Shown: in pieces, positions 30,869-62,632 of the stretch
Layout of the letters: every line of letters starts with the position of its first letter
Numbering within the stretch: position 1 is the stretch's first letter
From: Candidatus Sericytochromatia bacterium
Lineage (GTDB): Bacteria; Cyanobacteriota; Sericytochromatia; S15B-MN24; UBA4093
NCBI GenBank assembly: GCA_036676455.1
Contig: JAKFCW010000101.1
Span: 5,211-69,210 of the forward strand
Direction of reading: 5' to 3'
DNA: 64,000 nt
Translations under genes and position numbers: made by a program
The notes under the pieces: model-generated
What the model saw: the letters and a program-made list of their open reading frames with translations, nothing else
Database searches by the model: none
What the model was told of the DNA's origin: nothing

Positions 30869-33800
30869 ATGATCGATATCAGGCTCCTGCCGGCTTTCCG
30901 GCGCTTCCTTGCGTTCGCGCTGATCATGACCCTCGCTCTGGCCTTGACGGCTTGTCCTCGTCCGCTCACGCCTCCCATGGGCCTGCCGGGCGACGGCTCG
31001 GTGATCCAGGCGGCCGATCACGTGGAAGGCCGCATCAGCTTCGGCTTCCGCCACACCCAGGCCGGCATCAAGGAAGACGTGGCTCCCGGCGCGACCGTCT
31101 CGCTGATCGAGCTGACCACGGGCAACACCGTGAGCACCACGCGCACGGACGCGGACGGCAAGTTCCTGCTCACCTACTCCAACGGCTTCAAGCCGAAGTC
31201 CGGAGATCTCTACTACTTCGAGGCGGTCAAGGGGCTTTCGGGTGGGACGAGCGCGCCCAACGCGGCCGGCTCCGACGCCGTGAGAGTCCGCACCATCGCG
31301 AGCTACTGGAGCGGCGGCTGGGTCACCCTGACCAGCGGCAACCCCGGGACGTCCATCCTGATCTCTCCGATGACCACCGCGCTCTCGGTGGTGGTGAGCC
31401 TGCGCCAGGCCACCTCCAAGAAGCTCGATCCCACGGCCCTCTTCGGGGCCATCAAGGCGGGGCGGCCCGCGGGCGGCTACCCGGACACCGTGCAGATGTC
31501 GAGCCCGGAGCTCGTCCAGATGGTTCAGCGGGCCTACGACCTGGTGGTCGGCTCCCTGGAGAAGGATCGCGACCCCCTGCGCTGGATCCAGCTGTCGAGC
31601 GCGGACCTGGACTTCAACACCGTCACGCTGCCGGAGCTTCCCTTCTCGATCTCGTACCTCGACCCGCCGAACGCGGTCGCCCTGGAGACCATCGATCTCG
31701 TGGGCAGCAACTTCGAGGGCGAGCCGGTGGTGGACTTCCAGGCCGACGGAGGCCAGCTGGCGCGCGCGACCGAACTCAGCGTGAGCTCGGACCTCACGCG
31801 GATCACGGTCCGGGTGCCCCCGACCGCCGTCACCGGCCATGTCCGCCTGAGCATCGGCGAGCGCACCCTCACCGGCCCCATCTTCCGGCTTGACACCCGG
31901 GACGGCCACTCCGTGGTGGACGCCCGGGGCAACCTCTACGCGGCGAACCGGGGTCTCGGCACCGTGGCCATCCTCGAGCCGGTGAGCGGCTCCGACCGCA
32001 CCAGCGTGCGCTCGCTGATCACCGATCTCGGAGAGCCCTCGGCGTTGACGTTCGGCCTCTCGGGCTTCGGCGCCCTGTTTGTCGCCAGCACCGGCGGAGT
32101 CGTCTGGAACGCCTCGCTCGACGTGCCACTGGACGCCGCCACCCCCATCTCCTTCCTCTCGAAGGCCTCTTATTCGACGGGCGGGGCCGCGGATCCGGGC
32201 GGCATGGCCTTCCGGAACAAGCCCGGCGATCCTGGCCACGGCGTCCTCTACGTGACGGACGCGGCCAACCACAAGCTTTACGCCGTGCGGGCGGGGGGCG
32301 GCGTCGCCCAGCTCGTGACGTTGACCGGGGTGGCGTTGTCCCAGCCCCGGGGGCTCTCGTTCGGGCCTGACGGCCGCCTCTACGTCGCCAACGCGGGCGC
32401 CAACAACGTCGTGGCCATCACCCTGACCTCGGATACGACCGGCACCTCCGAGGATTTCGTGAGCGGCTTCAGCATGCCCTGGGGCATCGCGTTCGACAAC
32501 CGGGGCAACTGCTACGTCAGCAACCACCGGGGCAACTCGGTCTACCGCGTGCCGGTGACCTCGGAGCCCGGCGTTACCCCGATCGCCTACGGAAACGTCG
32601 GCGCCTTCTCGAGCATTCCCAGCCCCGCGGGCCTGGATGCCGACGCATCGGGTTACCTCTACGTCGCCGATCGCTTGACCAACGGGGTCTACCGGATCAA
32701 CACCCTGGCGGAGAGCCAGCAGATCGCCTTCGGGATGAACGCGCCCACGTCGACCTGGGTGGATGCGGACGGCCTCTTCCTGCTCACGGATTCCGGCCGG
32801 CTGCTTCACTCGAACAAGCTCGACAGCACGGGCGTCCTCAAGGTCGTGGCCCAGGGGTTGCTCACGGCCAAGGGCCTGGTTCGGGACACCGACGGCAACT
32901 TCTACACCCATCAGGCGGCCCTCGACGCCATCACCCAGATTCGCCCGGACGGCTCCACCGTCCAGGTGGTGGTCGGCGTCAGCACGTCGGACGGCGCGGG
33001 CCTCTCCATCCGCGGAGACAAGCTCTACCTGCGTTCGAACACCAGCTTCGATCCGGGCGGCGACTCCTACGCGGTGCAAGGCGAGGTCCTGGAGTTCACC
33101 CTGGTGCGAGGCGGAGACGGCAAGGTCTCGCACGTCTCCGGTCCGACGGCACGCCTCCGGACCCCCGTCGACAAGCTCACGGGCCTGAGTGGCGGCGGCG
33201 GCACGCTCTACACCATGAACCCGCGAACCAAGACCTTCTTCGCGATGACGGTGGCCGGCACCACGAACCAGAGCGTCGGCCGCAGCTCGACCATGACGCG
33301 CCTGAAGTCGGATCCCTCCCTGGCGGATCCCAAGAACCTCCTGGTCGTGAACGGCAAGATCTGGGTGGCGGATTACGCCGGCGGAGGCAACGGCAGCATC
33401 CGGGTCTATGGGCTCGACGGGACCTTCGAGCAGGAGATCGCGGACATCGAGACCCCGACTCACCTGGCCTACGACGGGACCTACGTCTACGCCAACTCGT
33501 ACACGGGCGGCTACCTGCGGGCCTTCGAAACGACGGCGCCGTACGCCAAGGTCGCCGCGCGCGAGCGCACGGGCTTCAGTAACCCTCGCCCATTCGCCTT
33601 CGAGGGAACCACGCTCTACGTCAACGAGTGGGGCCCCAACCGGATCTCGAAGATCGACAACTACGCCGCGAGCACGGTGATCACTCCCCTGCTCACGCAG
33701 TCCGACCGCAATGATCTCGCGGTCATGGCGGGGACGATCTACGTCACCTCGGGGGCCAGCGTCTACCGGATCACCGATGACGGGAGCGGCTGGACCCAGG

Positions 33801-34378
33801 AGGGCGTGGCGTGGAAGGACTACGACCGGACCCTGAGCACCCTCAGCGTGATCGACGGGGCGCTCTATGCCGTCAGCGACAGCGCCCGGATCCATGACCT
33901 GCGGGAGTCCTCGTACCGGGCGATCGCCACCAGCCTCTACTACCAGTTCGGCCTGTACGGCTACTCGGGCATCCATGGGGATCCGTCGGGCTGGGGCCTC
34001 GTGAAGGGGACGGACCTCGTCTCGTACGGCCGGGGGGATTCGCACTCGACCTACGTCGTCGAGACGGCGCTCGACGGCTCCATGCATCGAACCTACCGGT
34101 TGATCGGCATCACGCTCGGAGGCATGGTGGATGACGGAGCGGGGACCGTTTATCTGACGCACGTCGGCCACGGCACGATCTACCGCCTGGCAGGCAACAG
34201 CTTCGCGCAGTTCGCCTCGGGGCCGTACGGCTCGCTGGATCGCATGTACGGCGGGATCTCGTATCACGGCGGCAAGATTTACCAGGCCATCTACACCAGG
34301 CACTGGATCGACCAGATCGACGCCACCAGCGGCGCCCGGACGACCCTGAAGCTGGGCCTGGTTACCCCGGAGTTGTAG
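30869..34378 (+). CDS. Giant lipoprotein, class A (A1): lipobox-CPRPL + CarboxypepD_reg-like + linker + IPT/TIG + about 800 aa of NHL-type beta-propeller repeats. About 1169 aa.
   Basis: ATG at 30869 lies 6 nt after GAGGAGG. The leader is MIDIRLLPAFRRFLAFALIMTLALALTAC-PRPL. Motifs are GATVSLIELTTGNTVSTTRTDADGKFLL, LYYFEAVKGL, RVRTIASY, MTTALSVVVSL, DRDPLRW, an IPT segment (ISYLDPPNAVALETIDLVGSNF...RITVRVPPTAVTGHVRL), then DGHSVV. NHL-like blades follow (LYVTDAANHKLYAV, LYVANAGANNVVAI, CYVSNHRGNSVYRV, LYVADRLTNGVYRIN). It ends LGLVTPEL. Confidence 0.85.
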   Translation: MIDIRLLPAFRRFLAFALIMTLALALTACPRPLTPPMGLPGDGSVIQAADHVEGRISFGFRHTQAGIKEDVAPGATVSLIELTTGNTVSTTRTDADGKFLLTYSNGFKPKSGDLYYFEAVKGLSGGTSAPNAAGSDAVRVRTIASYWSGGWVTLTSGNPGTSILISPMTTALSVVVSLRQATSKKLDPTALFGAIKAGRPAGGYPDTVQMSSPELVQMVQRAYDLVVGSLEKDRDPLRWIQLSSADLDFNTVTLPELPFSISYLDPPNAVALETIDLVGSNFEGEPVVDFQADGGQLARATELSVSSDLTRITVRVPPTAVTGHVRLSIGERTLTGPIFRLDTRDGHSVVDARGNLYAANRGLGTVAILEPVSGSDRTSVRSLITDLGEPSALTFGLSGFGALFVASTGGVVWNASLDVPLDAATPISFLSKASYSTGGAADPGGMAFRNKPGDPGHGVLYVTDAANHKLYAVRAGGGVAQLVTLTGVALSQPRGLSFGPDGRLYVANAGANNVVAITLTSDTTGTSEDFVSGFSMPWGIAFDNRGNCYVSNHRGNSVYRVPVTSEPGVTPIAYGNVGAFSSIPSPAGLDADASGYLYVADRLTNGVYRINTLAESQQIAFGMNAPTSTWVDADGLFLLTDSGRLLHSNKLDSTGVLKVVAQGLLTAKGLVRDTDGNFYTHQAALDAITQIRPDGSTVQVVVGVSTSDGAGLSIRGDKLYLRSNTSFDPGGDSYAVQGEVLEFTLVRGGDGKVSHVSGPTARLRTPVDKLTGLSGGGGTLYTMNPRTKTFFAMTVAGTTNQSVGRSSTMTRLKSDPSLADPKNLLVVNGKIWVADYAGGGNGSIRVYGLDGTFEQEIADIETPTHLAYDGTYVYANSYTGGYLRAFETTAPYAKVAARERTGFSNPRPFAFEGTTLYVNEWGPNRISKIDNYAASTVITPLLTQSDRNDLAVMAGTIYVTSGASVYRITDDGSGWTQEGVAWKDYDRTLSTLSVIDGALYAVSDSARIHDLRESSYRAIATSLYYQFGLYGYSGIHGDPSGWGLVKGTDLVSYGRGDSHSTYVVETALDGSMHRTYRLIGITLGGMVDDGAGTVYLTHVGHGTIYRLAGNSFAQFASGPYGSLDRMYGGISYHGGKIYQAIYTRHWIDQIDATSGARTTLKLGLVTPEL

Positions 34379-34388
34379 GAGGAGGCCC

Positions 34389-37300
34389 GTGGTGAGAACG
34401 CTTTTCGTGATGCTGCTCGCCCTGGTGCTGGCAAGCTGCAAGCTGCCTTCCCTCGTGCCGCCGCTTTCCTCGTCGGGAGTGGCGCCCGCGCGCCTGGCCA
34501 GCTCGACGCAGATCGCGGGCCGGATCGCCGCGTCGAGCGGAGTGCAGGCGAGCATCCTGGACATCGCCAAGGGCGCTTCGGTCGCCCTCATCGACGCGGC
34601 CACGGGCCTCACGCTCTCCACCACGGTCACCAATCCCGATGGCACCTTCTTCCTGCAGTTCGCAGAGGGCTTCGTCCCGGTGGACGGTCGGTCCTACATC
34701 CTCGAGGCGTTCAAGGGCATCAAGGGGGCGAATCCGGATTACAACCAGGCGGGCGCCGACACCATGCGCCTGCGGACGCTGCTCACCTACCGCGAGGCGG
34801 AGAAGGGCTGGGTGAGCCTGGCCAACGCCGTGCCGGGGCCGATCGACCTGACGATGTCGACCACGGCGGTTTCGGTGGCGATCGCCCACATGAGCCAGGC
34901 CGGCACTCCCGTGGATCCTACCCTCTTCATCGGCTGCTTGAACGGCGATGCCTACGACGAGGCTGCCCGCCCGCTCTCGCTGGTCGCCTTCACGGCCCTG
35001 CGCGCGGAGGTGGAGAAGGCCATCACCGAGGACCGCGACCCCCTTCACTACGTGGTCTACGACAGCAAGACCGGCTCGTTCCTGAGCTCGTTCGTGGCCT
35101 TCGCGGTCTCCGAGATCACTCCGAGCAGCGGCAACATCGGGACCCTGCTCGACATCCGGGGCGACGGCTTCACCTCCGGTCCGCTCGAGATGGTCACCAT
35201 CAACGGGACCCAGGCCGAGATCCAGCCCGGTACCCTCGCGGAGGACCGGGTGGTCGTCAAGGTCCTTCCTGGCACGCGCACGGGCCCCGTCTCGATCGTG
35301 ATCAACGGCGTCGTCCAGGCGGGCCCGACCTTCACCGTCACGATGACCGACGGCCACCGCTCGGTCCGCGGCGAGACCCTCTACGTGGCCAACCCCGCCT
35401 GGGGAACCGTGGCCGAGGTCAAGCCGAACGGCGAGATCCGGACCCTGAGATCCGGGCTTTCGACCCCGCGGCAGGCCGTCGTGGGCCCCGACGACCTGAT
35501 CTACGTCTCCAACGAGGGGGACAACACCGTCGTCCGCTTCGACGCGGCCGGGGGCGCCTTCGAGACCTTCTCGACGGCCGTCACCAAACCCTACGGGCTG
35601 GCCTTCGACGGCGCCGGCAAGCTGCATGTCTCGAGCCGGCAGGCCGCGGGCTCGGTGGTCAAGCTCGATGCCGCGGGCAATGCGGCCGCCACCGTCACGG
35701 GCCTCGCCCTGCCCGAGGCGATCGCCTTCAACGCGGGGGGCGACCTCTTCGTCGCCGAGGACGCCGGCTCCATCCGCCGCGTTCCCGCCGGAAGCCTCAC
35801 CCCGGAGGCCTACTCCTTCGTCGCGACCCCCATGGGCCTGGCGGTCGACTCGGCGGGTGACCTCTACGTCGCCAGCAACGACAACTCCGTCGTCTACCGG
35901 ATCGGGGCCAACCGGGCGCTCACGGTCTTCGCCATGCTCAACCGTCCCGGCGGTCTGACCTTCGATCCGAACGGCAACCTCTACGTGTCGGATACCGAGC
36001 GCAACCTCATCAACCGCGTCTCGCCCTCGGGCGACGTCCGGGTGCTCGCCTACGGCATCAGCATGCCGCGCGGCCTCGCGGTCGATCCGACGACCCACAA
36101 GGTCTACGTCTCCCTCAACCGCTCCAATGCCATCCTGGAAATCGACGGGGATGTCCTGCGGCCCTTCGTCACCGGCATCGCCAACCCGTTGACCCTCACC
36201 TACCGCGGGAGCGGCCTGTACATCGGCCAGCCCGAGATCGACACCATCTCCTTCGTCACCACGCCGGGAGGCCGCCTCTCCACCGTCGCGAGCGGCATCT
36301 CCGAGGCCAGTGGCGCGGATGCCTCCGCGGACGGCACGGTCTACGCCGGTCGCTGGGGACGCGAGGACGCATGGCAGCCCAACCGCAACCCCATCTACGA
36401 GGGCGGCTTCCAGAGCCTCGATCCGCTGGGCGTCCTCCAGCCCATCCGCTATCCCTACGTCCGAAAGACCCGCTTCCGGGCCATCGCGCCGGACGACACC
36501 GTCTACGAATCGAGCCACGACGAGCGGACGATCGCGAAGATCACCCCGCATGCCAACGGCTCGCGCACGGTCGAGCAGCTTTGGCGCTCGGACACCGAGC
36601 GCCCTCGCCACATCGTCCTGGACGCCTCCGGCAACCTCTACGTCTCCTTCCTCGATCAGGACAAGGTCGTGCGCTTCCGCCCGCCAGCCTACGCTCCGGA
36701 AGCGATCACGGGCTTCAGCCAGCCCTTCGGCCTGGCCTTGCACCCGGGGGCCGACGCCGTCAGCCTCGCGGACGACAAGCTCTACGTCTACAACCGCGGC
36801 AATGGGTTCCTCTCCTGGATCAACAACCCGTCGGTCGCCGCGACCAAGACCGCCGACTCGGCCGGCCCCTCGACCGGCATCGCCACCGCCGGGGACACCT
36901 ACGGGCTCGCGCTCGCCCTGAAGCCCGGAGACGACGGCGTCTACCTCGCGGCCCAGAGGAAGGTCGTGCGCTACGACATCGGCGACGGGCTCTTCGCGTC
37001 CTACCTCACCAAGGACCTACCGATCGCGATCACCGAGATCAAGGCCTGGCCCGACGGCACGCTCTTCGCTCGCCCGGAGAACGAGGACTTCGTGACCATC
37101 TCGCCCTCCCTGGTCGTGACCCAGTCGAGGCTGCGCAGCTATGGCGGAGCCAAGAACTGGAAGGACGACGTGGGGCGCACCCTCTTCCAGGGTGATACCT
37201 ATGGCCACCAGATCTGGAGAGGCTCCGAGACCTTCCTCGGCGCGCTCGGCCGGACCTTCGAGGTCGCGGTCGACGGCTCGAGCTACCTCTATCTCGCCGG

Positions 37301-37661
37301 GGCCGGGACCCGCGGGGACACGGGCACCGACTACGGCGGCCTGTTCCGCTACGAGCTCTCCGGGGCCTCTCCCAAGGAGCTCTACGTCCCGATCGGCAAG
37401 GGGCGGGTCTACTCTCTGGTCGTGGCTTCCGACCGCACGGTCTACGCCGGCTCCGGGGATCAGAAGATCTACCAGGTCGACCTGAACGGAGCCGTCACGC
37501 CCAAGTGGTCGCTAGGCACCCTCCCCTACGGCCTCGATCGCGATGGCGACACCCTCTGGGTGGTGGGAGAGAACAACCGCATCTTCTCGTTCGCGCGGAC
37601 CCTGTCCGAGGCGCTGACCCCGCCGTCCCAGACCTACGGCATCATGGAGCCCGTCTTCTGA
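34389..37661 (+). CDS. Giant lipoprotein, class B (B1): [15 protein letters not shown] + the same N-module + NHL-type beta-propeller repeats. 1090 aa.
   Basis: GTG at 34389 follows AGGAGGAGG, 10 nt after the A1 stop. The leader is [24 protein letters not shown]. Motifs are [60 protein letters not shown], an IPT segment ([22 protein letters not shown]...[17 protein letters not shown]), then DGHRS. Blades include [42 protein letters not shown] and [14 protein letters not shown]. It ends YGIMEPVF. Confidence 0.85.
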
Positions 37662-38032
37662 TGCGCATGCTCGTCACCCGCCTCGCCCTCGTCTCCCTCT
37701 GCCTGCTCCTCGGCTGCGCCGAGGATGACGGCTTGCTCGCGGGCCGCCCCTCCGCCCGGGCCTCGAGCCTCCCGGCTGACGGCTCGCCGACCCCCACCCC
37801 CACCCCGACCCCCACTTCGGACGCCACGGCGACGCCCACTCCGGCGCCGACACCGACTCCCACCCCGTCGCCTAGCCCCTCGCCCAGCCCGTCTGCCAGT
37901 CCGTCCCCCCCGCCGAGTCCCGCGGTGAATCCCACCCCGCCCGCGACTCCCGACCCGGAGCCCAGCGAGTTCCAGCCGGGCGAGGACGACGGGGGGATCG
38001 TCGGAGACGGCGACGTCGGCGGCGGGGCCTGA
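37661..38032 (+). CDS. Small Pro/Thr-rich lipoprotein (S1), 123 aa
   Basis: The ATG overlaps the B1 stop by 1 nt (TGATG). The leader is [38 protein letters not shown] / SPSPSPSP low-complexity region follows, then an acidic tail. Confidence 0.75.
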
Positions 38033-38192
38033 GCTCGTCGAAGCCCGCTCCCGAGGGACTCGCGTTCGCCGGAAGGACCTGCAATCAAGAAACTTCCGCT
38101 TTCAGCCTAAGAGGGCCCTAGTAGCCTGTCTGTTACCCCCTCGAACGTGTTGATGGCGCTGCGGAGTCTGGCGACCCCGGCGGGAGGAAATC

Positions 38193-38339
38193 ATGCGAGC
38201 CATCGCGTCATCGGGTCTCGCCGGCCGCGTCCTGAGGGGGGTGCTGGCGGCTTGCCTGCTGGCATTCGTGACGGCGTGTCCCCGCCCCCTGACCCTCGAC
38301 ACGACGCCCACCCCCGGTGAGGAGCTGCTGCCGTTCTAG
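38193..38339 (+). pseudogene. Orphan 48-codon ORF encoding only a class-A-type signal peptide and lipobox (possible gene remnant or leader peptide)
   Basis: ATG at 38193 follows GGGAGGA. It translates as MRAISSGLAGRVLRGVLAACLLAFVTAC-PRPLTLDTTPTPGEELLPF-stop. It is below the ORF-track size cutoff and was read directly from the sequence. Repeat family 2 copy c follows immediately. Confidence 0.5.
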
Positions 38340-38540: not shown

Positions 38541-41500
38541 ATGCGAACTTTCGCCTCAGCGATCACTTCACGGCGAACCTGGCGGATCGTTCTAACGGTC
38601 TGCCTGCTGGCACTGCTGACGGCGTGTCCTCGCCCCCTCGTTCCCCCCGCCTCGACTCCCGGCCTCGGTGCTGATCCCAGCCTCTCGGCCACCGAGCAGG
38701 TCCTGGGCCAGGTGGACTTCGGCGGCCAAACAGTGCAGGCCGATATCTCGGACGACATCGCCCCGGGCGCCACCGTCGCTCTGATCGACGTGCAGACCGG
38801 GCAGACCCTGAGCACCACCCGCACGGACGAGAACGGCCGCTTCGTGCTCGTGTACTCCAACGGCTTCAAGCCGGTATCGGGAGGGCTCTACTACTTCGAG
38901 GCCCTCAAGGGCCTGAAGGGTTCCAGCGGGCTTCCCAACGCCGTAGGCGCGGACGTGGTTCGGGTCCGGACCATCGCCAGCTATCGCAACGGCGGCTGGG
39001 TCACCCTCACCAGCCGGACTGTCACCACCTCGATCCTCATCAACCCCATGACCACGGCCCTGTCGGTCATCGTCAGCCTGCGGCAGGGCTCCGTCGCTCC
39101 TCTCGACGTCAGCACCCTCTTCGGCACGATCAAAGCGGGCCGTCCGGAGGGGAGCTATCCCGACACGCTGGACCTGCCGGATCCCTCGCTGGTACCGCTG
39201 GTCCAGAGCGCCTACGACCTGGTCATCGACGCCCTTGCCAAGGAACGGGACCCCGTCCGCTGGATCACGCTCGATAGCGAGAACCCCAACGTCGTCCGCT
39301 TGCCGGACATCCCCTTCTCGATCAAGTTCCCGGATCCCGGCGTCCAGGAGATCGGCAAGGAACTCGATCTGGTCGGGGTCAACTTCGCCCCGGAAGCCGC
39401 ACAGAACCTGGTCTCTTTCCGCACCGACGGCGGCTGGATCCCCGCCACGGTCGTCTCGGTCCTGCCTGACCTGACCCGCCTCAAGGTCATCGTCCCCGAC
39501 GGCGCGGTCAACGGTCCCATTCGCCTGCAGATCGGCGACAAGATCCTGGTCTCGGATTTCAACTTCCAGCTCGCCGTCGTCGACGGCCACAGCGTCGTGC
39601 GCCCCTTCGGAGGCATTTCCTACCTCTTCGTCGCCAATGCCAGCCTCGGCACCATCGCCTACGTCTCCCCTTCGGGCGAGGCCACTCCGCTGATCAAGAA
39701 CCTCTCGAGCCCGCAGGCGCTGACCTTTGGCCCGGATGGATTCCTCTACGTCGCATGTGGCGGCACCACGAAGCGCGTCGTCCGCTTCGACGTCACCCTC
39801 GACGGCAACGGCAACCTCGTGCCGGGCATCCCAACCGATTACTCCGGCTTGCTTTCCAATCCCTCGGGCATGGCCTTTGATCTCTCCGACCCCAACCCCG
39901 ATCCCAGTCAGCGGCTCTATCCGCTTTACGTCGCGGACCGTGGCCTCAACCAGTTGCACCGGGTGGAGTGGACGGCGAACCGCACCGCGGTCCAGCCCAC
40001 CGCGCTCTTCCCCGTGGCAGGGCTCAATGAGCCGCGCGGCCTCTCCTTCGGTGCCGATGGCCGCCTCTACGTGGCCAACGCCGGGGCCAACAACGTCCTC
40101 GCCGTGTCCAAGCTGAGCGGCGAGAGCGAACCCTACCTCTCGGGTCTCGGCAAACCCTGGTCCGTGGCCTTCGACAGCAAGGGCAACTTCTACGTCAGCA
40201 GCAACACCGGCAACTCCATCTTCCGGCGCGACGCCGTCTCGGGAGTCCTCTCGGCCTTCGCGAGCGTCCCCAGCCCCGGTGGCCTGGACGCCGACGCCTC
40301 GGGTTACATCTACTGCGGAGACAACGTCAGCAACCAGATCTACCTGGTCAACTCGCTGGGCGAGACGCGCATGGTCGCCACGGGCATCAGTTCTCCGATG
40401 GGCATCCACGTCGACGCGGACGGCCTCTTCGTGGTGACCGGCAGCGGCCAGTTGCTCAAGGTCACCCACGACACCGGCTCTCTCTCCGTGCTCGCGGATG
40501 GCCTCACGGGCGCGGGCGACCTGGGCCGCGACTCCGCGGGCAACTTCTACGTCTTCCAGAAGAGCCTCGGTCGCATCTCCCGGATCACCCCCGCGGGGAT
40601 CATCAGCGTCTTCCTCAACGTCACGAACACCTCCGACATCTACGTCAAGGGCAACAAGCTCTACCTCAAGAAGACCAACACCCTACGCCCTGACGGCAAC
40701 TGGTCCGGCATGGGAGGAGTCGAGGTCCGGGATCTCTCCGACCGGGAAGTCGTGCAGGACTTGAAGGTCAGCTACATGCGCGATGCTATCGGCATGGCCT
40801 TCGATACCACTCCGGCCGGCGCCTACCGCGATTGGCTCTACGTGGCCAACCTCGACGATCGCTCGGTCGTGAGGCTCAAGCCGGAAGGCGACGGAGACCT
40901 CAAGCGGCACAAGGTCCATCGCTTCCTCGACCGCGTCAACGCCCCCGAGCTGGATCGGCCATGGGACGTCTGGGTGGATCCGGCCAGCGGCAACGTCTGG
41001 GTCTCGGATCAGGGCACGTCCACCGCCGATGATGGCCTTTACGTCTACAACTCAGCCGGTACCCGGATCGCGGACTATTCGGGCATCGTCGATCGCCCGC
41101 TGAAGTTCGGTTACGACGGCTCGCGCCTCTACCTCGCGAACTACGGAGGCCACGAGGTCATCCGGATCGACCCGACCAGCGGGGCCGAACTGGGGGCGAT
41201 CGCCGTCCCCTACCCCCGCTCGATCGCCTTCGACACGGCCAGCAACCGCATGTTCATCGGGACCTGGGACGGCTCGAGCGGCAGCCGCCCGATCAAGAAG
41301 GTCGACGCTTACGCCACCGCGCCGGTGATGGCGGACTACTACGACCTGCTGGCCTACGACCTGGTCTTCGAGAACGGCAACCTCTACACCGCCGCCGGCT
41401 CCTCCTACAAGATCTCCGCCGACCTGACCCGCCACGATCGCTTCATGTCCTCGCGATCCACCCTCTACGACTTCGCGCGCCGCGCCGACGGCAAGATCTA

Positions 41501-47537: not shown

Positions 47538-47661
47538 ACCGCCTGCATACCCGCCATTGGCCAAAATGCACCTCTGACGGGCTGACGGGGGCTTCTCGCA
47601 CGAAAGCTTGAATGAAGAATTGGTGAGCCCTGGCGAGGTGGTGCAGATCTGCTGCAATTCT

Positions 47662-47670
47662 GGGTAAAAC
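47662..47670 (+). promoter_or_regulatory. Putative -10 element (GGGTAAAAC)
   Basis: About 70 nt upstream of the A1' ATG at 47739. Confidence 0.2.
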
Positions 47671-47738
47671 GTGCTCACAGTCGCTCGCAACCTGAGGGGG
47701 CGCTCGCTCTAGTCGCGCGTGGGGAAAGAAGGCCAGTC

Positions 47739-51296: not shown

Positions 51297-54200
51297 ATGA
51301 AACGCCTGACCACTCTCGTTCTGCTCGCGTTCCTCCTCACGAGCTGCCGGCTGCCCTCCCTGCTTCCGACTTCCATGACGTCCGGGGATGGCGCCGGCGG
51401 TACCGCGGCCCGGCAGACCGTCGTCCTCAAGGGCCGCATCGAGGAGCCGCGCTCCGTCATGGCCACTCCCGCCGACATCGCCAACGGCGCCACCATCGCC
51501 CTGATCGATGCGGAATCCGGCCTGACGCTCGGCACCAGCCTCTCGGATCCCCTTGGTAACTTCTTTCTCAGTTTCGGTGACGGCACGAACCTGGTGGACG
51601 GCCGCGCCTACTACCTCGACGTCATGAAGGGCGTCCGCCTCGACGCCAATCAACCCGATTCCCCCTTCAACCAAGCCGGCGCGGATACCCTGCGGCTGCG
51701 CAACATCCTCTTCTACCAGGAGGCCTCGATGGCGGGCTCCGCGGGCTGGAAGAGCCTGATGAACGGCACCGCCGGCAACGTGGTCAACGTAGGCAACCGC
51801 TCGACCACCATGAGTATCGCGCTCGCCCTCAAGCGCCAGGCCGGCGAGACCGTCGTCCTCTCCGACTTCGCGGGCGCCCTCGAGGCGGATATCGAGAACG
51901 ATCCCGCCTGGACCATGGGAGGGCTGACCCAACCCGTTTACACCACCCTGAAGTCGATCGTCCTGGAGGCCATCGCCAACGACCGCGATCCGATCCAGTA
52001 CGCGGTCTACGACGAGGGAAGCAAGACCTTCATGAACCCCTGGATCGGCTTCTCCATCGCCTCCGTCACCCCCGCCGAGGGACCCATCAACCAGGTGATC
52101 ACCATCTCGGGGGAGGGCTTCGACCTCGGCGACCCGACCGTCGCGGTCAACGGCCGCGAGGCCCAGGTCCTCACCCGGACCGCCCAGGTGATCACGGCCA
52201 AGGTCATGCCCGGATCCCGGACCGGCCCCGTCTCCGTCAAGATCGGGACCACCCTGCAGGCCGGCAACACCTTCAAGGTCAACTTCCACGACGGCCACAG
52301 CGCCCTCTACGATCGCACCGTGCTGGGCCAGCCCGTTCGCATGCTCTACGTGGCCAATCCCGCGTGGAACACCATCGTCGAGGTCTCCCCGGACGGCGCC
52401 ATCACCAAGGTCTGGGACGACACCACCATCCCCGAGCTGAAGACCCCTCGCCAGGTCGCCGTCTGGAACGGCAAGCTCTACGTCTCGTGCGATCCCTCCG
52501 GGACGGCCAACGACAAGATCCTCCAGCTCGATCCGACGAATCCCGCCGCCAAGGTCGTCTACAGCACGGCGGTCCAGCACCCCTACGGCCTGGCCTTCGA
52601 CCTCGATGGCTTCCTGCACGTCTCGAGCTATCAATCGGCCGGATCGGTCGTCAAGCTCGATGCCGCGGGCGCCGTCGTCGCCCAGTACGCCGGCCTGGCG
52701 TCGCCCCGTGGCCTCGCCTTCGATTACCTCGGCAACCTCTTCGTCGCCGAGGAGGGCGGTAGGGTCGTCAAGCTCACCGCTCCCGCCATGACCGCCGAGA
52801 CCTGGGGCCTGCTGCCGTCTCCGCTTGGCCTCGCCGTGGACTCGGCAGGAGATCTCTTCGTCGCCAGCAACACCAACGACGTCATCTACCGCATCAGCAG
52901 CCTGCGCGCCATGTCGGTCTTCGCCATGCTCAACAAGCCCGGCGGCCTCACCATCGACGAGCGGGGCTACCTCTACGTCTCGGATACCAGCCAGAACCTG
53001 GTGCGCCGCATCTCGCCCTCGGGAGACGCCAAGATCTACGCCTACGGCATCAGCAACCCGCGCGGCCTCGCCGTGGATCCCACCAACGGCACCCTCTTCA
53101 TCTCGCTCAACAAGTCCAACGCCATCCTGAAGGTGGAGAATGGGGCGCTCAAGCCCTTCGTCACGGGCATCGCCAACCCCATGACCATCACCTTCCGCGG
53201 CAAGGGCCTCCTGATCGCCCATCCGGAGACCCATACCATCTCCTACGCGGAGCGCGACGGCAAGATCAGCACGCTGGCGACGGGCCTGGAGTACCCCGGC
53301 GGAGCCGATCAGGCTGCCGACGGCGCCGGCAACCTGACGGGGCCTCTCTACGCCGCACGCTTCGGCGACATGGAGAGCCCCTTCTCGGCCCGCCTGCCGC
53401 GCTACGACTCCTACGAAGTTTCTAACGGCTCCCACAACGGGGTCGACGTGATCGGCGGCGCCTCGCCTGGCCTCCGGCGCTGGCTCTACCGCCAGCAACT
53501 CAACTACATCGCCGTCGACGCCGCCAAGAACATCTACGCCATCCACTCCGGCGATCGCACCCTGACCAAGATCGCGGCCGAGCCCGGCGGCGGCAACGCG
53601 TCGCGCAAGGTCACCCGGATCGCCGGCCCCCGCTCCCCCTACACCTTCGGAGGCAATCCCGGCTGGGTCTCGGTCGACGCCAACTCCAACATCTACGTCG
53701 TGGTGCCCAGCGAGCACTTGATCTACCGCTTCAAGCCCACGGGCGGCACCTACGCCATGGACACGATCACGGGCTTCAACAGCCCCTGGGGCATCGCCTT
53801 CTCGGATACCACGCCTCAGGCCATGTTCGTCTCCAACACGGCGGACGGCAAGATTCGCCGGGTCCTCGACGCCGTCAACGACGCCGCAGCCCAGCCGACC
53901 ACGACCTTCGAGATCCCGGCCAGCACCGGGGTCCGGGGCCTCGCGTACATGGCCTCGGGCGTGGCGGGCACGGGCACCCTCTACATGGCCAACGGGACCA
54001 GCATCATGATGGCCGGGATCTCCGGCAACGCCTACACGGCCGCCTCCTATGCGACCTACTTCTCGGGCCTGCCGGGCTCTTGCTCGTACCTCTACGCGAA
54101 GCCTTTGACCGGCGAGGTCTTCGCCTGGGCAAACGCGACGTTTGCCTACGTGGTGCCGCCGGATCTTCCCCTGGTGCCGTACGTATTCAAGGATTACACC

Positions 54201-54710
54201 GGCTGGAGCCGCTTCCGTGGCTTCACCTTCGATCCGTCGTTCAATACGTCCACTAACCGCAACACCGGCTACTACGCGATCGAAGATCAGTACTCCGGAT
54301 TATCGACCTTCCGCTCGCAGACGACGACCCGCGAGGTGCAGCTCAAGCCCGATCCCGATCCCCTCAAGTCCGGCGTCCTCTACGTCGCCTCGCCGGATAG
54401 TGAGGGTGCCGGCGGCATCCTGCGCATCGATCTCGACACCCAGGAGGAGCTGATGATTCCCCTGCGGACCTACTCGATCGGCCTGTACGGCGCCGACCTC
54501 TACGCGGGAGCCTCCGACAACTGGATTTACCACGTCGACGCGGCCGGCAAGCATACCTCGAAGTGGAATCTCTCGACCCTCCCGTACGGGCTCGACATCT
54601 ACGGGGACACCGTCTGGGCGGTGGGAGCGAACTCGCTGGTCTTCGAGCGCCCCATCGGGGCGGGAGTGGCCAAGGATCACAAGTTCGGCATGATGGGACC
54701 GGTGTTTTAG
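51297..54710 (+). CDS. Giant lipoprotein, class B (B1', closest to B1). 1137 aa.
   Basis: The leader is MKRLTTLVLLAFLLTSC-RLPSLLP. The core [66 protein letters not shown] parallels B1. It ends FGMMGPVF. Confidence 0.85.
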   Translation: MKRLTTLVLLAFLLTSCRLPSLLPTSMTSGDGAGGTAARQTVVLKGRIEEPRSVMATPADIANGATIALIDAESGLTLGTSLSDPLGNFFLSFGDGTNLVDGRAYYLDVMKGVRLDANQPDSPFNQAGADTLRLRNILFYQEASMAGSAGWKSLMNGTAGNVVNVGNRSTTMSIALALKRQAGETVVLSDFAGALEADIENDPAWTMGGLTQPVYTTLKSIVLEAIANDRDPIQYAVYDEGSKTFMNPWIGFSIASVTPAEGPINQVITISGEGFDLGDPTVAVNGREAQVLTRTAQVITAKVMPGSRTGPVSVKIGTTLQAGNTFKVNFHDGHSALYDRTVLGQPVRMLYVANPAWNTIVEVSPDGAITKVWDDTTIPELKTPRQVAVWNGKLYVSCDPSGTANDKILQLDPTNPAAKVVYSTAVQHPYGLAFDLDGFLHVSSYQSAGSVVKLDAAGAVVAQYAGLASPRGLAFDYLGNLFVAEEGGRVVKLTAPAMTAETWGLLPSPLGLAVDSAGDLFVASNTNDVIYRISSLRAMSVFAMLNKPGGLTIDERGYLYVSDTSQNLVRRISPSGDAKIYAYGISNPRGLAVDPTNGTLFISLNKSNAILKVENGALKPFVTGIANPMTITFRGKGLLIAHPETHTISYAERDGKISTLATGLEYPGGADQAADGAGNLTGPLYAARFGDMESPFSARLPRYDSYEVSNGSHNGVDVIGGASPGLRRWLYRQQLNYIAVDAAKNIYAIHSGDRTLTKIAAEPGGGNASRKVTRIAGPRSPYTFGGNPGWVSVDANSNIYVVVPSEHLIYRFKPTGGTYAMDTITGFNSPWGIAFSDTTPQAMFVSNTADGKIRRVLDAVNDAAAQPTTTFEIPASTGVRGLAYMASGVAGTGTLYMANGTSIMMAGISGNAYTAASYATYFSGLPGSCSYLYAKPLTGEVFAWANATFAYVVPPDLPLVPYVFKDYTGWSRFRGFTFDPSFNTSTNRNTGYYAIEDQYSGLSTFRSQTTTREVQLKPDPDPLKSGVLYVASPDSEGAGGILRIDLDTQEELMIPLRTYSIGLYGADLYAGASDNWIYHVDAAGKHTSKWNLSTLPYGLDIYGDTVWAVGANSLVFERPIGAGVAKDHKFGMMGPVF

Positions 54711-55077: not shown

Positions 55078-55269
55078 ATGAAATCCCTGTTTCCCATCCT
55101 CGGTCTGATCCTGGCGACCGCCATGGCCTTCGGGGCCGGGTGCGCGGACGATGGCGCACTCTTTGGCGTGGGGGGCAGCGGAGGCAAGAAAGCGTCCGCC
55201 GCTCCCCAGGCGAGCCCGGCCCCATCGGCCAGCCCGTCGGGCACCGGAGGCTCGATCGTCAACGATTGA
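55078..55269 (+). CDS. Very small lipoprotein (S'3), 63 aa
   Basis: AAAGAGG RBS. It translates as MKSLFPILGLILATAMAFGAGC-ADDGALFGVGGSGGKKASAAPQASPAPSASPSGTGGSIVND. Confidence 0.65.
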   Translation: MKSLFPILGLILATAMAFGAGCADDGALFGVGGSGGKKASAAPQASPAPSASPSGTGGSIVND

Positions 55270-55345: not shown

Positions 55346-55366
55346 GTGCGTATTTCGGTGGTTTCC

Positions 55367-58937: not shown

Positions 58938-58941
58938 GGAG

Positions 58942-61900
58942 ATGACCATGCCCTTCATGCGCGTTTTGAACTTGCTCTTGGTCGTGCTGCTCGCGGGGTG
59001 CCGCCTGCCGTCGCTACTGCCGCATGCCGCTACCCCGCTTGACGGAACCTCCGCCGCCATGCCGGCGCATGTGCTGCAAGGGCGAATCGTGTCGCCGCCT
59101 CAGGTGCAGGCTTCCCTGACCGACATCGCCTCGTTCGCGAGCATCGCCCTGATCGACTCCGAGACGGGCTACACGGCCGCGACGACCGTCAGCGGCGCGA
59201 ACGGCACCTTTACCCTGAGGTTCGAGGCCGGCTTTTCGCCGGTCGATGGCCGTGCCTACTACCTCGATGCCATCAAGGGCATCAAGGAGACCGGGCCCGC
59301 CACCGACCCCAACCCCCTCTTCAATCAGGCGGGCGCTGATGCCGTGCGGCTGCGCACGGTCCTCTTTCATCAAAGCATGCCCGAAGGCTGGGTGAGCCTC
59401 AAGAACGCCGCGCCAGGCGCGATCTACATCAGCCGGGGCACCACGGCGATCGCCATGGCGGTCTTCCTCAAGCAGCAGTCCCAGGCCATCGCCTGGAGTT
59501 CCCTCATCGGGGCCCTGCACGTGGAGACCGACGCCTATACCGAGGTCCCGGCTTCACTGACCTCCACCGAGTTCCAGGATGCCTACGCCATCGTGGACGA
59601 GGCGATCACCCAGCATCGCGACCCGCTTCAGTTCCTCGCCTTCGACTCGGCCGTCGGCTTCGTCAACCTTTACAACGGCCACTCGGTCGATTCCCTGGAG
59701 CCCGATCACGGCGCGATCAACCAGCAGATCGTGATCAAGGGGGACGGCTTCCTGACCCCCGGCGACGTGACGGTCACCTTCAACACGACCGAGACGGTCC
59801 CCCCGACGGGAGCCAACCGCACCAAGGACAGGCTCGTGGTGACGGTTCCCCCGGGAGCCCGAACCGGGCCGGTGCTCGTCAAGATCGGCACGGTGACCCA
59901 GGCCGGCCCGGCTTTCACGGTGGATTCCTACGACGGGCATCGCGCCAAGCTGGGCGACACCCTTTACGTCGCGAACTTCGACCGCGCCAAGATCGTCAAG
60001 GTCTCGCCGGACGGCGTGGTCGAGGATTTCGCCGACGTGCCGGCCGGTCCCACGCAGCTTGCGATCTACACGGACGACTCCGATCCCCTTCAGCCGATCG
60101 AGCGCTTGTTCGTTGCCTGTGAGACCGCCGACCAGATCGTGACCCTCGACCTGCGCGAGCCCGCTCCGATCGCCCAACCCTTCGTGAACCTCACCAAGCC
60201 TGCAGGCCTGGCCTTCCTCGGAAACGTCCTCTACGTCTCCAGCAAGTCCCTCAAGACCGTCTCGCGCTTCAACCTCGACAAGTCCTCGGCAGGGGACGCG
60301 CTCACGGGCTTCGAGGCTCCAGCAGCCCTGGCGTTCGACTTCGAGAGCCAGCTCTTCGTCGCGGACGGCAACAAGGTCCTCCGGGTCAACCTGACGACGG
60401 GAACGTCGCTGGTCTGGATCTACCTCTCCAGCCCCCGGGGCCTGAGCGTCGATTCCGGCGGCACGCTCTACGTGGCCAACTACGACGACGGCGTGATTTA
60501 CCGGATCCTCGTCATCCCGCCCACCAACCGCCGGGCGGCCTACGTCTTCGCCCGCGTCCCCAATCCCACCGGCATCATGCTGGATGCCGCCGGGTACATG
60601 TTCGCCGCCTCGGAGACGCAGCATCAGATCTCGCGGATCTCTCCGCTGGGCGACATGAAGCCCTACGCCTACGGCATCGCGAACCCCCGCGGCCTGGCCG
60701 TGGATGGCGCCGGGAACCTCTACGTCTCCCTCAGCCAGTCGAACGCCGTCTTGAAGGTGGAGCAGAACGGATCCTATCGAACCCGGCCCTTCGTCACGGG
60801 GATCCCCAACCCGCATTCCATCACGTGGCGCAACGACAAGCTCTACCTCGCCCACCGGGATGCCGGCGTGGTCTCCTCGGCGACCGCCGCGGGGAGCATG
60901 AAGACGGAGGCCGTGGGGTTCACCATGCCCGGCGGCGCGGACGTGGCGGCCGACGGCACGATCTTCGCGGGGCGCTACGGCGCGAGCTGGCACCTGGAGG
61001 TCTGGCCGCCCGATCCCACCCATGTCCACTACAACCGGGGTGGCCTGGAGTCCTACGCCAACGGAGTGATTTCCCTCGACCGCGGCTTCGTCAGGACCAG
61101 CCTCAAGGGCCTGGTGGGCCTGGACGACGGCACACGCTACGTCCTGACCTCCCAGAACACCTTGCTGGAACTCAAGGCCACCAACGGGCCGTCGTCATCC
61201 TACCGGTATCGCCAGCTGGATGCCTACGCCCAGACCCCGCTCCGGATCGAGCGGGATGGAGCGGGCAACCATCTCTACGTGCTCCTGGAGGGCTCGAAGG
61301 ATGTCCTCCGTTACGAGAAACTAGGCGACTCCTGGGTCAAGTCCGTGCTCGACCTCGATCCCGCGCTCGACAAGACGGGTTTCACCAATCCGACGCGGAT
61401 GACCTTCGATGCGGCCGGTGACCGCCTCTATGTGCTCGATGGCGGAGTGCTGAAGCGCGTCGAGGGCGCCACGACCGCGACTCCGGCGCTTTCCACGAAG
61501 GCGCCCGGAGAGCTTTGGTCGGTCTCCTTGACCGGAGCGAACAGTATTTCCTACAAGAACTCCCGGATTTACGTGACCTATGGCAACACCTGGATTCGCT
61601 CTCTCGATTCGACCCTGGCTTCCCCGACCGTCTCGGACTACGCCCAGGGACCGGTCAACCTGACCGGGGTCATCGCCCATCCCGTGAGCGACTATCTTTT
61701 CGCTTACCAGGGTGAAGACGGCTACAAGGTCCCGCCCAGCGGGGTCTTCGAGTACCTCACCGGATACGGCGGCACGGCCTTCGCCTACACGCCGGACGGC
61801 ACCTTCATGCGGGACTACGTCAGTTACATGCCGCTTTATTTCGGCAAGACCACGCTGCCGGGCTTGGTCCAGACCCACGAAGTGGCGGTCGACGGTGACC

Positions 61901-62271
61901 GGGTCTACGTCGGAAGCTCGATGAACGATGAGTACACCGGGGTCTATCGCTTCGATCGCGATACCGGCGAGCAATGGCTCATCCGGGGTCTGGGATCCTC
62001 GGGGGCCAGCGCCATCGCCGTCGGGCCTGACCGGACGCTCTACGTGGGTGGGGGCAACGGCAAAATTTACCAGGTGGACGGCAACGGCGCGGCCTCGGCA
62101 GCCTGGGTGACGACTCCCGCCATTCCAAGCGATCGCCTCTACGGCCTTGACATCACGGCCAACGGCACCAAGCTCTGGGCGATCGGCAGTTCGCGCACCA
62201 TCTACGGCATCACGGTGGCCGGCAAGACCGTCGAGCTGGTCAAGCCGGGCCTCTCGTCGCCACGCTTCTAG
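58942..62271 (+). CDS. Giant lipoprotein, class B (B2', closest to B2). 1109 aa.
   Basis: The leader is MTMPFMRVLNLLLVVLLAGC-RLPSLLP. Motifs match B2 (AYYLDAIKGI, NQAGADAVRLRTVL, QHRDPLQF, VDSYDGHRAKLGDTLYVANFDRAKIVKV, YGIANPRGLAVDGAGNLYVSLSQSNAVLKV). It ends KPGLSSPRF. Confidence 0.85.
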   Translation: MTMPFMRVLNLLLVVLLAGCRLPSLLPHAATPLDGTSAAMPAHVLQGRIVSPPQVQASLTDIASFASIALIDSETGYTAATTVSGANGTFTLRFEAGFSPVDGRAYYLDAIKGIKETGPATDPNPLFNQAGADAVRLRTVLFHQSMPEGWVSLKNAAPGAIYISRGTTAIAMAVFLKQQSQAIAWSSLIGALHVETDAYTEVPASLTSTEFQDAYAIVDEAITQHRDPLQFLAFDSAVGFVNLYNGHSVDSLEPDHGAINQQIVIKGDGFLTPGDVTVTFNTTETVPPTGANRTKDRLVVTVPPGARTGPVLVKIGTVTQAGPAFTVDSYDGHRAKLGDTLYVANFDRAKIVKVSPDGVVEDFADVPAGPTQLAIYTDDSDPLQPIERLFVACETADQIVTLDLREPAPIAQPFVNLTKPAGLAFLGNVLYVSSKSLKTVSRFNLDKSSAGDALTGFEAPAALAFDFESQLFVADGNKVLRVNLTTGTSLVWIYLSSPRGLSVDSGGTLYVANYDDGVIYRILVIPPTNRRAAYVFARVPNPTGIMLDAAGYMFAASETQHQISRISPLGDMKPYAYGIANPRGLAVDGAGNLYVSLSQSNAVLKVEQNGSYRTRPFVTGIPNPHSITWRNDKLYLAHRDAGVVSSATAAGSMKTEAVGFTMPGGADVAADGTIFAGRYGASWHLEVWPPDPTHVHYNRGGLESYANGVISLDRGFVRTSLKGLVGLDDGTRYVLTSQNTLLELKATNGPSSSYRYRQLDAYAQTPLRIERDGAGNHLYVLLEGSKDVLRYEKLGDSWVKSVLDLDPALDKTGFTNPTRMTFDAAGDRLYVLDGGVLKRVEGATTATPALSTKAPGELWSVSLTGANSISYKNSRIYVTYGNTWIRSLDSTLASPTVSDYAQGPVNLTGVIAHPVSDYLFAYQGEDGYKVPPSGVFEYLTGYGGTAFAYTPDGTFMRDYVSYMPLYFGKTTLPGLVQTHEVAVDGDRVYVGSSMNDEYTGVYRFDRDTGEQWLIRGLGSSGASAIAVGPDRTLYVGGGNGKIYQVDGNGAASAAWVTTPAIPSDRLYGLDITANGTKLWAIGSSRTIYGITVAGKTVELVKPGLSSPRF

Positions 62272-62284
62272 CACGGGGGATCCC

Positions 62285-62632
62285 ATGAGACGAGACCTGT
62301 TGCCGACCCTTTTCATTGCCCTTGCGCTCGCCCTGGCGGCCGGCTGCGCCGGCGAGGACGACCTGCTCGGCGGAGCGGGAGCACGGAAGCCGGCTTCCGG
62401 CACGGCCGTGGAGGGTGCGGCGAGCGATACCGGGGCGGGATCGCAAACTCAGACCCCCACCCCCACCCCCACGCCGACTCCCTCGCCCACCGCGACCCCG
62501 ACGCCCGTGCCGACGCCGACGGAATATGCGACCATGCAGCCGCCGCCGGTCAACGATGAACCGGAGGGCCCCGAAGCGAGCCCGCCGCCGATCGATCAGA
62601 CCGAGCCGATCGAGGATGAGAATACCGTCTAG
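62285..62632 (+). CDS. Small Pro/Thr-rich lipoprotein (S4), 115 aa
   Basis: The leader is MRRDLLPTLFIALALALAAGC-AGEDDLLGG, followed by [22 protein letters not shown] and an acidic tail. Confidence 0.75.
   Translation: MRRDLLPTLFIALALALAAGCAGEDDLLGGAGARKPASGTAVEGAASDTGAGSQTQTPTPTPTPTPSPTATPTPVPTPTEYATMQPPPVNDEPEGPEASPPPIDQTEPIEDENTV

Follow-up and report, generated by a model that had tools for sequence, protein, structure and literature searches.

What kind of system leads a genome to devote tens of kilobases to tandem copies of the same few lipoprotein genes? The question is raised by a stretch of 64,000 nucleotides (nt) from Candidatus Sericytochromatia bacterium (GenBank assembly GCA_036676455.1, contig JAKFCW010000101.1, positions 5,211 to 69,210 of the forward strand). 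This stretch, hereafter the window, has a G+C content of ~67% and gives more than 32 kb to cassettes made of a gene A, a gene B and a small gene S. The Sericytochromatia are an uncultured, non-photosynthetic sister lineage of the oxygenic cyanobacteria, whose cell surface and lifestyle have barely been explored. We find that A-B-S is a conserved three-gene operon unit, the sole annotations of which have so far been the misleading 'PknD' and 'YvrE'. Its interest lies in the strict pairing of A with B, in the size of the genomic investment and in the linkage to a divergent secretion machine in the sister lineage of the cyanobacteria.

The A-B-S unit and its conservation

Listing and translation of the open reading frames (ORFs) showed the complete A-B-S unit four times on the + strand, in two cases with an extra short S paralog, termed S' (aa, amino acids; coordinates are those of the window):

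30869-34378, + strand: A1, class A lipoprotein with three predicted propellers, 1169 aa, lipobox LTAC followed by PRPL
34389-37661, + strand: B1, class B lipoprotein with three predicted propellers, 1090 aa, LASC followed by KLPSL
37661-38032, + strand: S1, acidic, Pro/Thr-rich lipoprotein, predicted to be disordered, 123 aa, GC followed by AEDDGL
38193-38339, + strand: 48-aa ORF, class A signal peptide and TACPRPL, then a stop
38541-42035, + strand: A2, 1164 aa
42045-45422, + strand: B2, 1125 aa
45431-45760, + strand: S2, 109 aa
45783-45971, + strand: S'2, 62-aa short S paralog, GC followed by AEEDGLFGVGG
47739-51284, + strand: A3, 1181 aa, the protein chosen for modelling
51297-54710, + strand: B3, 1137 aa
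54711-55040, + strand: S3, 109 aa, abutting the B3 stop
55078-55269, + strand: S'3, 63 aa
55437-58937, + strand: A4, with a likely TTG start at 55437 behind GGAAAGGAG
58942-62271, + strand: B4, 1109 aa
62285-62632, + strand: S4, 115 aa

The gaps from A to B measure 10, 9, 12 and 4 nt in cassettes 1 to 4 and contain GGAGG-like sequence, while the junctions of B with S are, in the same order, TGATG (1-nt overlap), 8 nt, TAGATG (abutting) and 13 nt. Translation and the reading of these junctions bear out the four-unit array that the initial annotation had described, with its tight spacing, ribosome-binding-site gaps and junction types. The units had also been said to stand four in a row; their number holds, but the run is not strictly uninterrupted, as cassettes 2 and 3 are separated by three prepilin-like genes on the - strand (46062-47690). 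From 30.8 to 62.3 kb the long + strand frames have a third-codon-position GC of 0.85-0.93, which identifies them as coding, and the equally long antisense ORFs are a product of the high GC. The 48-aa ORF at 38193-38339 aligns with the 5' ends of A1-A4 and is probably the 5' relic of an A gene, from a cassette lost or rearranged between S1 and A2. Promoter and terminator scans between the cassettes gave counts not above those of shuffled sequences and are hence uninformative.

Lipoproteins were recognised by pattern only, as an N-terminal basic region, a hydrophobic stretch and a lipobox [LVI][ASTVI][GAS]C within ~15-35 residues, and this pattern is present in all A (LTAC), B (L[AT][SG]C), S and S' (I/L/A-G-C) proteins. 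Each class continues with a signature of its own, namely L-T-A-C-P-R-P-L in all A proteins, C-[RK]-L-P-S-L in all B proteins and G-C-A-[EDG]-[ED]-D-x-L in all S and S' proteins, so that the class-specific N-terminal signatures claimed beforehand are found in every translation. Conservation of the motifs after the cysteine is 90% or higher, and the linker that comes next is variable and modelled with low confidence.

Beyond the window, ~36 full-length A and ~34 full-length B homologs were found among 5.8 billion protein clusters, and they lie on the same contigs. All come from metagenomes or metagenome-assembled genomes (MAGs), with compost and soil as source environments, and their labels, where there are any, are 'PknD' or 'YvrE', derived from the NHL repeat. 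A survey of 185,579 species genomes yielded full-length relatives in three MAGs only, LC028 and LC003 of Candidatus Sericytochromatia and one labelled Stenomitos. Gene order was read on the species-genome loci together with contigs from an exact protein look-up and a metagenome scan, which yielded, on 16 contigs with the window included, 26 A genes whose downstream sequence could be read. B directly follows A in all 26 cases on the 16 contigs, within 1 to ~16 nt overall and with a gap of 1-14 nt where gene calls exist. An S gene, defined as a small Pro/Thr-rich lipoprotein with an acidic motif after the cysteine and located 3' of B, comes next in 20 of 24 cases by the automatic rule and in one more by inspection (~21/24). 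The expectation that relatives would keep the order A-B-S is therefore upheld, with no scattering of the three genes. At the divergent loci L080 and L087, which are exceptions, an S-like gene stands just upstream of A, as it does before the terminal A gene of contig L086.

The number of cassettes ranges from one among housekeeping genes (L002, L077) up to at least four in a row. On L076, the closest relative of the window, the order is A2B2S2S'2, the pilin triplet, A3B3(S)S'3 and then an ortholog of the gene at 62761 that is discussed below. Cassette 4 (A4-B4-S4) is missing there, so that cassette content varies between close relatives. An A4/B4 pair 66% identical to that of the window was found on L091.

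Between the cassettes of the window, A proteins are 37-52% identical to one another over their full length and B proteins 33-50% (E = 0 to 1e-127), and A and B share ~29% identity over their first ~650 residues. Alignment of profiles built from 36 A and 37 B sequences (hhalign) gives a probability of 100 and E 1e-104 over ~850 columns (A columns 10-957). The two classes had been treated as unrelated, which this homology contradicts; on these alignments A and B are ancient paralogs, and the match between the profiles leads to the conclusion that they share one architecture. The nearest pairs also correspond, A1 being closest to A3 as B1 is to B3, and A2 to A4 as B2 is to B4. Over ten cassettes on six contigs, from which locus L002 was left out in this mirror-tree comparison, the A-A and B-B identity matrices correlate with r = 0.987 (Mantel p = 1e-4), with a mean absolute difference of 3.6 percentage points. 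It follows that every duplication has involved A and B together and that the two evolve at equal rates, and by this measure the cassette duplicates and evolves as one unit.

The same cassettes had also been called diversifying, which proves too strong a term. Against L076, with 93-94% amino-acid identity, the ratio of nonsynonymous to synonymous substitution rates (dN/dS) is 0.14 for A2, 0.15 for B2, 0.47 for S2 and 0.14 for S'2, values which, for this one ortholog pair of loci, indicate purifying selection on A and B; ongoing diversifying selection is rejected for the pair (dN/dS 0.14-0.15). A DNA repeat search found no long identical tracts between cassettes of the kind that can drive recombination or phase variation, the tracts being 60-83% identical. 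Because of the low dN/dS and the lack of long identical tracts, the variety among cassettes is read as old paralogy under constraint and not as active variation: cassette types that diverged long ago stand side by side, no fewer than three of them in the window.

Predicted architecture and the N-terminal module

The domain order of the A and B proteins was derived from A3, modelled with AlphaFold2 (AF2) and family alignments in two overlapping fragments, residues 1-700 (predicted local distance difference test, pLDDT, 88.7) and 660-1181 (pLDDT 89.7, predicted template modelling score 0.89). The model is divided as follows:

residues 3-27: signal helix
residues 28-47: low-confidence disordered linker
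residues 52-166: beta-sandwich
residues 168-240: helices
residues 261-349: Ig-like/TIG sandwich
residues ~355-635: propeller 1, six four-stranded blades
residues ~636-1181: propellers 2 and 3

The fragment 660-1181 is all-beta in the model, with ~44 strands that make up two more propellers in a fixed mutual orientation. The predicted order for A and B is thus a lipid anchor, a disordered linker, a beta-sandwich/helix module, a TIG domain and three six-bladed propellers. NHL (PF01436) was matched by all six A/B proteins scanned (32.6-55.8 bits against a cut-off of 20), in agreement with the six-bladed fold of the model. TIG (PF01833, cut-off 20.9 bits) was matched by B2 (23.6) and B3 (30.9) and by none of the A proteins, in which the Ig-like sandwich of the A3 model (261-349) aligns with the TIG domain of B. 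The first sandwich has a sub-threshold CarboxypepD_reg match, and the other Pfam matches are to NHL and related propeller families in propeller 1 alone. The NCBIfam models ScyD/E/F, PQQ_ABC_repeats and Rcas_1661 were rejected, as they score far below their cut-offs and match generic repeats or low complexity. Conservation is high over residues 50-700, lowest over 700-1150 and high again in the last residues, which read GLVxPEL in A and G[IM]MxPVF or GLSxPRF in B; cassette types differ mainly in propellers 2 and 3.

In Foldseek searches the best matches of A3 1-700 (TIG and propeller 1) are TIG+NHL lipoproteins encoded in polysaccharide utilisation loci (PULs) of Bacteroides (3hrp, 3tc9, 4hw6, 3kya), followed by the filamin-NHL protein Lin41 and by PknD. 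The matches to the PknD and Pizza propellers have template modelling (TM) scores of 0.6-0.77, normalised to the target. The sensor domain of PknD (PDB 1rwi) resembles propeller 1 in being a six-bladed NHL propeller (Pfam 33-56 bits; PDB profile match E 1.7e-23), but A and B have neither a kinase nor a transmembrane segment, and the name 'Serine/threonine-protein kinase PknD' given in the source annotation is erroneous and stems from the repeat. For A3 660-1181, in the fold only, the best matches are the tandem ligand-binding propellers of LRP2 and LRP6. The YWTD propellers of LRP5/6 and LRP2 are likewise consecutive, rigidly packed, six-bladed and ligand-binding; however, they are eukaryotic, separated by EGF domains and 10-13% identical to A3, and we draw an architectural analogy without a claim of homology.

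The S proteins are of a wholly different make. Their mature part consists to 64-75% of Pro, Thr, Ser, Ala and Gly, with a pI of 4.1 and nearly no hydrophobic residues, and from this composition they are predicted to be disordered stalks. They do not look like simple spacers, for within a cassette type the motif after the cysteine and the last ~45 residues are well conserved, while the middle varies freely. The C-terminal ~45 residues of S2 are kept in same-type cassettes of other contigs, and the type-2 pattern WTPKPTPTPEPQ...ESEAP.ESP.PDSYT.PDP..VNG recurs in five cassettes whose A proteins are 67-93% identical. Such a pattern would suit a tether with a C-terminal segment that binds a type-specific partner, for which the cognate A/B pair would be the obvious candidate.

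The beta-sandwich/helix module at the N-terminus, in turn, defines a family much wider than A and B. From the eleven copies in the window a profile of residues ~50-256 was built, which retrieved 629 proteins at E <= 0.001 from 1.84 billion representatives, 515 of them at E <= 1e-10, so that the unit defines a family of at least 629 sequence clusters sharing a new N-terminal lipoprotein module. The module is always located at residues ~40-240, in proteins whose lengths cluster near 330, 630, 700-880 and 1050-1200. Most of twelve sequences inspected have a lipobox near the N-terminus and, further on, a TIG domain and a C-terminal part that differs between proteins, for instance a single propeller, several TIGs or Kelch-like repeats. 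The few carriers with a name are 'Cyanobacteria bacterium', 'Stenomitos' MAGs and 'bacterium'. PDB sequences offer no match to the module even at E <= 10, and Pfam has no family devoted to it.

Three more members of the family lie in the window between the secretion cluster and A1:

24202-26802, - strand: g15, 866-aa lipoprotein, GC followed by TRPIVP, with the same N-terminal module and a different C-terminal part
26871-27965, - strand: g16, 364 aa, S-type anchor (GC followed by AEDDSLL) and Pro/Thr linker fused to a six-bladed NHL propeller
28074-30206, + strand: g17, 710-aa lipoprotein, GC followed by PRPML, with the N-terminal module and TIG but no propellers

The C-terminal regions of g15 and g17 are non-propeller and have no family match. 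In a more distant genome (GCA_017744355.1, L081 3977-13826), lipoproteins of ~630 aa with the module and a single propeller occur in duplicated X-Y pairs, in the order X (628 aa), Y (637 aa), a 395-aa S-anchored propeller protein, X' (627 aa) and Y' (642 aa). X and X' are 56% identical, Y and Y' 60%, and X and Y 38%. The 395-aa protein (8812-9999) has the S-type anchor GGC-ASEDDGLF, a Pro/Thr linker and a propeller, which is the layout of g16. Since L081 and g16 show the same theme, the combination of two N-module paralogs with one acidic-anchor lipoprotein is considered to be older than the triple-propeller A and B. There are hints here that the short S proteins may be a third partner without a propeller, derived from or standing in for a third propeller subunit.

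It had been stated that no named system fits A-B-S, and we agree, having found nothing for it in Pfam, NCBIfam, PDB sequences or the literature searched; papers on Sericytochromatia with NHL, pili, lipoprotein or secretin returned nothing on the unit. Among the six A/B proteins scanned there were no Pfam matches at E <= 0.01 to Rhs/YD, an autotransporter C-terminal beta-barrel, SLH or the Por_Secre_tail of the type IX secretion system. The suggestion of something new can be kept for the arrangement and the N-terminal module. It does not extend to the fold repertoire, as a lipobox, a CarboxypepD_reg-like sandwich, TIG and NHL-type propellers are ordinary building blocks, and the idea of large surface lipoproteins, some moved by a type II secretion system (T2SS), is likewise already known.

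The adjoining machine and a proposed route to the surface

The window also holds a T2SS/type IV pilus-like gene cluster, and a triplet of prepilin-like genes (m1-m3) inside the array:

10563-22994, mixed strands: T2SS/type IV pilus-like cluster as a whole
10563-11201, - strand: pilin-like
13159-15054, - strand: secretin
14972-15556, - strand: pilin-like
15563-16102, - strand: pilin-like
16405-17946, + strand: GspF/PilC
18393-20051, + strand: PilM/N fusion
20048-21211, + strand: GspC-like
21201-22994, + strand: GspE/PilB ATPase with MshEN cyclic di-GMP (c-di-GMP) motif
46062-46646, - strand: m1, prepilin-like
46646-47068, - strand: m2, prepilin-like, N_methyl match and weak PilV match
47055-47690, - strand: m3, prepilin-like

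That the array adjoins such a machine, as first reported, is correct, and the adjacency recurs in two other genomes. In LC028 (L003) the ATPase gene stands directly before A-B-S-S'-A-B, and on the compost contig RCUQ01000097 (L090) the order is ATPase, g17, g16, g15, g18 (a small secreted protein described below) and cassettes. The m1-m3 triplet, in which two proteins have prepilin-type N-termini and one a PilX/GspK-like N-terminus, stands beside cassettes on four contigs, the window and three others. At its N-terminus the GspE/PilB-like ATPase matches the MshE-type c-di-GMP-binding motif NF053729 with 55.5 bits (cut-off 38), which makes control of the machine by c-di-GMP probable. The larger ORFs of the window that were scanned include no PilT-like retraction ATPase. 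Directly upstream of the secretin gene, and overlapping it, lies a gene for a 186-aa lipoprotein (12615-13175, - strand; LATGC followed by TASYW) with no family match, which may be a pilotin-like accessory protein.

Our preferred reading, which we put forward tentatively, is that A, B and S may form a hetero-oligomeric, lipid-anchored binding complex that is displayed on the cell surface by the adjoining machine. A and B would work as a hetero-pair, on which the C-terminal segment of the cognate S would dock, and the class-specific motifs after the cysteine would act as sorting signals. The neighbouring T2SS/type IV filament machine, whose tip-type minor pseudopilin genes would be those inside the array, would carry the folded lipoproteins across the outer membrane as the T2SS does for PulA and InvL. 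Propellers 2 and 3 would then provide type-specific ligand binding, and the cassette types a repertoire of binding specificities. The physical A:B:S complex, the surface location, the dependence on a T2SS and the binding or adhesive role are all points that we infer.

The closest precedent is that of the T2SS substrates PulA and InvL, lipoproteins which are brought to the surface in a manner that needs a motif right after the lipobox cysteine and the protein GspN (PMC12802150). PulA of Klebsiella and InvL of Acinetobacter, the export of which depends on the secretin GspD as well as on the AsmA-like GspN, resemble A and B in being lipoproteins of ~1100 aa with a conserved short motif after the cysteine and in their linkage to a machine with secretin, GspE, GspF and pseudopilins; they differ in that the proteins described here come as paralogous pairs with a disordered partner and in many copies.

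Several observations weigh against display by the machine. The pattern that typifies PulA and InvL is a lipobox with GGG or ND(N/D) at positions P2'-P4', whereas the motifs found here are PRP (A), [RK]LP (B) and A-E-E/D (S). Scans of ~20 neighbouring ORFs with Pfam and NCBIfam, in which several ORFs were matchless and small ORFs fell outside the scan, named no GspN/AsmA-like gene. Because the motifs differ and no GspN-like gene was named, we say that the system would work like PulA/InvL display, and not that it is a member of it. The machine itself scores below the NCBIfam equivalog cut-offs for GspD (201/351), PilQ (185/284), GspF (288/424), GspE (534/630) and PilB (539/676); by these scores it is a type IV filament system too divergent to be called a T2SS or a type IV pilus. 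The cassettes of L002, L077, L080, L087, L091 and L093 have housekeeping surroundings, with no secretion genes within 10 kb. As to the complex, for which a fixed stoichiometry had been proposed, the tight spacing and the co-duplication would fit it but are no proof; co-duplication is equally expected for two non-interacting genes in one operon, and ~35 A-B pairs are too few for residue co-variation.

A more far-reaching form of the preferred reading, which we regard as doubtful, makes A-B-S the cargo, or working end, of a previously undescribed system by which basal, non-photosynthetic Cyanobacteriota would display proteins on their surface with a type IV filament/T2SS-like machine. The lineage-specific N-terminal module and the motifs after the cysteine would direct the lipoproteins through the secretin, after which they would assemble into heterotrimeric A:B:S propeller complexes with two lipid anchors and a disordered stalk, and the cassettes would supply an exchangeable repertoire of adhesins or receptors. 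If display by the secretin machine is true, T2SS-type surface display of lipoproteins and a sorting code after the lipobox reach a distant phylum, and concrete surface markers become available for enriching or imaging Sericytochromatia. If the proteins are not displayed, they still offer a clean system of obligately paired paralogs for the evolution of hetero-oligomers.

Alternative readings and further neighbouring genes

The competing explanation that survives best, which we consider serious although unlikely, takes A and B as periplasmic envelope proteins, either enzymatic (lactonase- or lyase-like) or binding, that are unrelated to the T2SS-like cluster, the arrays being the product of operon duplication. 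It draws on weak matches of propeller 1 to SGL/gluconolactonase, Vgb_lyase and ScyD/E/F and on the finding that about half of the cassette-bearing contigs lack secretion genes within 10 kb; S, moreover, has acidic residues after its cysteine that recall the inner-membrane retention signals of Enterobacteria. However, most of the enzyme-family matches lie below curated cut-offs and track the generic NHL repeat, and SGL/gluconolactonase, which does exceed the Pfam cut-off (up to 42.9 against 26.3 bits), does so via scattered repeat-sized segments alone. Five predicted domains in a row, with three propellers, would also be very long for the periplasm, and the recurrence of the machine or the pilin triplet beside arrays in independent genomes tells against a lack of relation.

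The pilin triplet suggests instead that A and B might be pilus adhesins, analogues of PilY1/PilC that would sit with m1-m3 at the tip or base of a pilus, the cassette type setting the adhesive specificity; this we judge decidedly unlikely. The likeness lies in a size of ~1100 aa, C-terminal beta-propellers and a place beside a minor pilin set, here the three-gene set directly beside cassettes on four contigs, as well as in the ATPase, whose MshEN motif is above cut-off as in attachment pili. Several such sets occur in some bacteria, and Myxococcus has several minor-pilin/PilY1 sets. PilY1, however, is not a lipoprotein, belongs to a distinct propeller family and is encoded in the same operon as four minor pilins, whereas the prepilin-like genes of the arrays number three, run on the opposite strand and occur as one set per array, not per cassette. 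A lipid anchor is ill-suited to a tip location, the PilY1/PilC propeller family has no Pfam or NCBIfam match in A and B, and many cassettes have no pilin genes nearby.

Glycan capture at the surface, in the manner of the SusE/F-like or 'auxiliary nutrient binding' lipoproteins of Bacteroidetes PULs, is a reading that we hold to be improbable. It is suggested by the top Foldseek matches, the PUL-encoded TIG+NHL lipoproteins of Bacteroides (3hrp, 3tc9/BT_3476, 4hw6, 3kya), which share with A3 ~260-635 a TIG domain followed by a six-bladed NHL-type propeller in a lipoprotein, and by the compost and soil source environments. These proteins nevertheless measure ~400-470 aa, have one propeller and lack the N-terminal sandwich/helix module, and they match at 14-16% identity with TM scores of 0.34-0.49 normalised to the target. 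They are, furthermore, encoded with SusC/D transporters, while beside the cassettes, in the window and in related loci with Pfam-annotated neighbours, there is no SusC/SusD-type transporter, glycoside hydrolase or regulator.

An S-layer-like coat built of cassette products, with lipid anchors and S stalks as its tethers to the outer membrane, would account for a coding investment of more than 32 kb and recalls the beta-propeller surface-layer proteins of Methanosarcina (1l0q matched at E 3e-14), Pro/Thr-rich stalks being typical of extended, often glycosylated spacers, but it is hardly likely, since the Pfam scan of six A/B proteins found no SLH or other S-layer anchoring domains and several diverged paralog pairs in place of one dominant abundant protein are unusual for an S-layer.

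Downstream of the four cassettes there is one further lipoprotein gene:

62761-64000, + strand: further N-module lipoprotein, AGC followed by PRPLV, located beyond the array as initially delimited and running out of the window

Its N-module is 34% identical to that of A3. An 88%-identical ortholog on L076 (17900-21359) ends in ...HYGTF and is followed 45 nt later by a second gene of the same class. This second gene is not a B gene, so that the gene at 62761 is probably not the start of a fifth A-B-S cassette and looks like a member of a separate tandem class.

Three other kinds of gene accompany the arrays. A secreted protein of 150-170 aa with no family match, g18 (window 30203-30712, - strand), is encoded just upstream of the first cassette in three contigs; the other copies (L078 670-1125, L079 782-1276) are 59-60% identical, and the strand varies by contig. 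A HupE/UreJ-type gene, of the nickel/cobalt transporter family, lies between two cassettes on L078 (8828-9847) and L079 (8766-9854) and is absent at the corresponding place in the window. Finally, L080 encodes at 5862-9417, just upstream of its S-like gene and A-B pair, four consecutive lipoproteins with a repeated N-terminal domain (...TTYRI.ARAY...), the last of them with an NHL propeller, which form another lineage-specific lipoprotein family.

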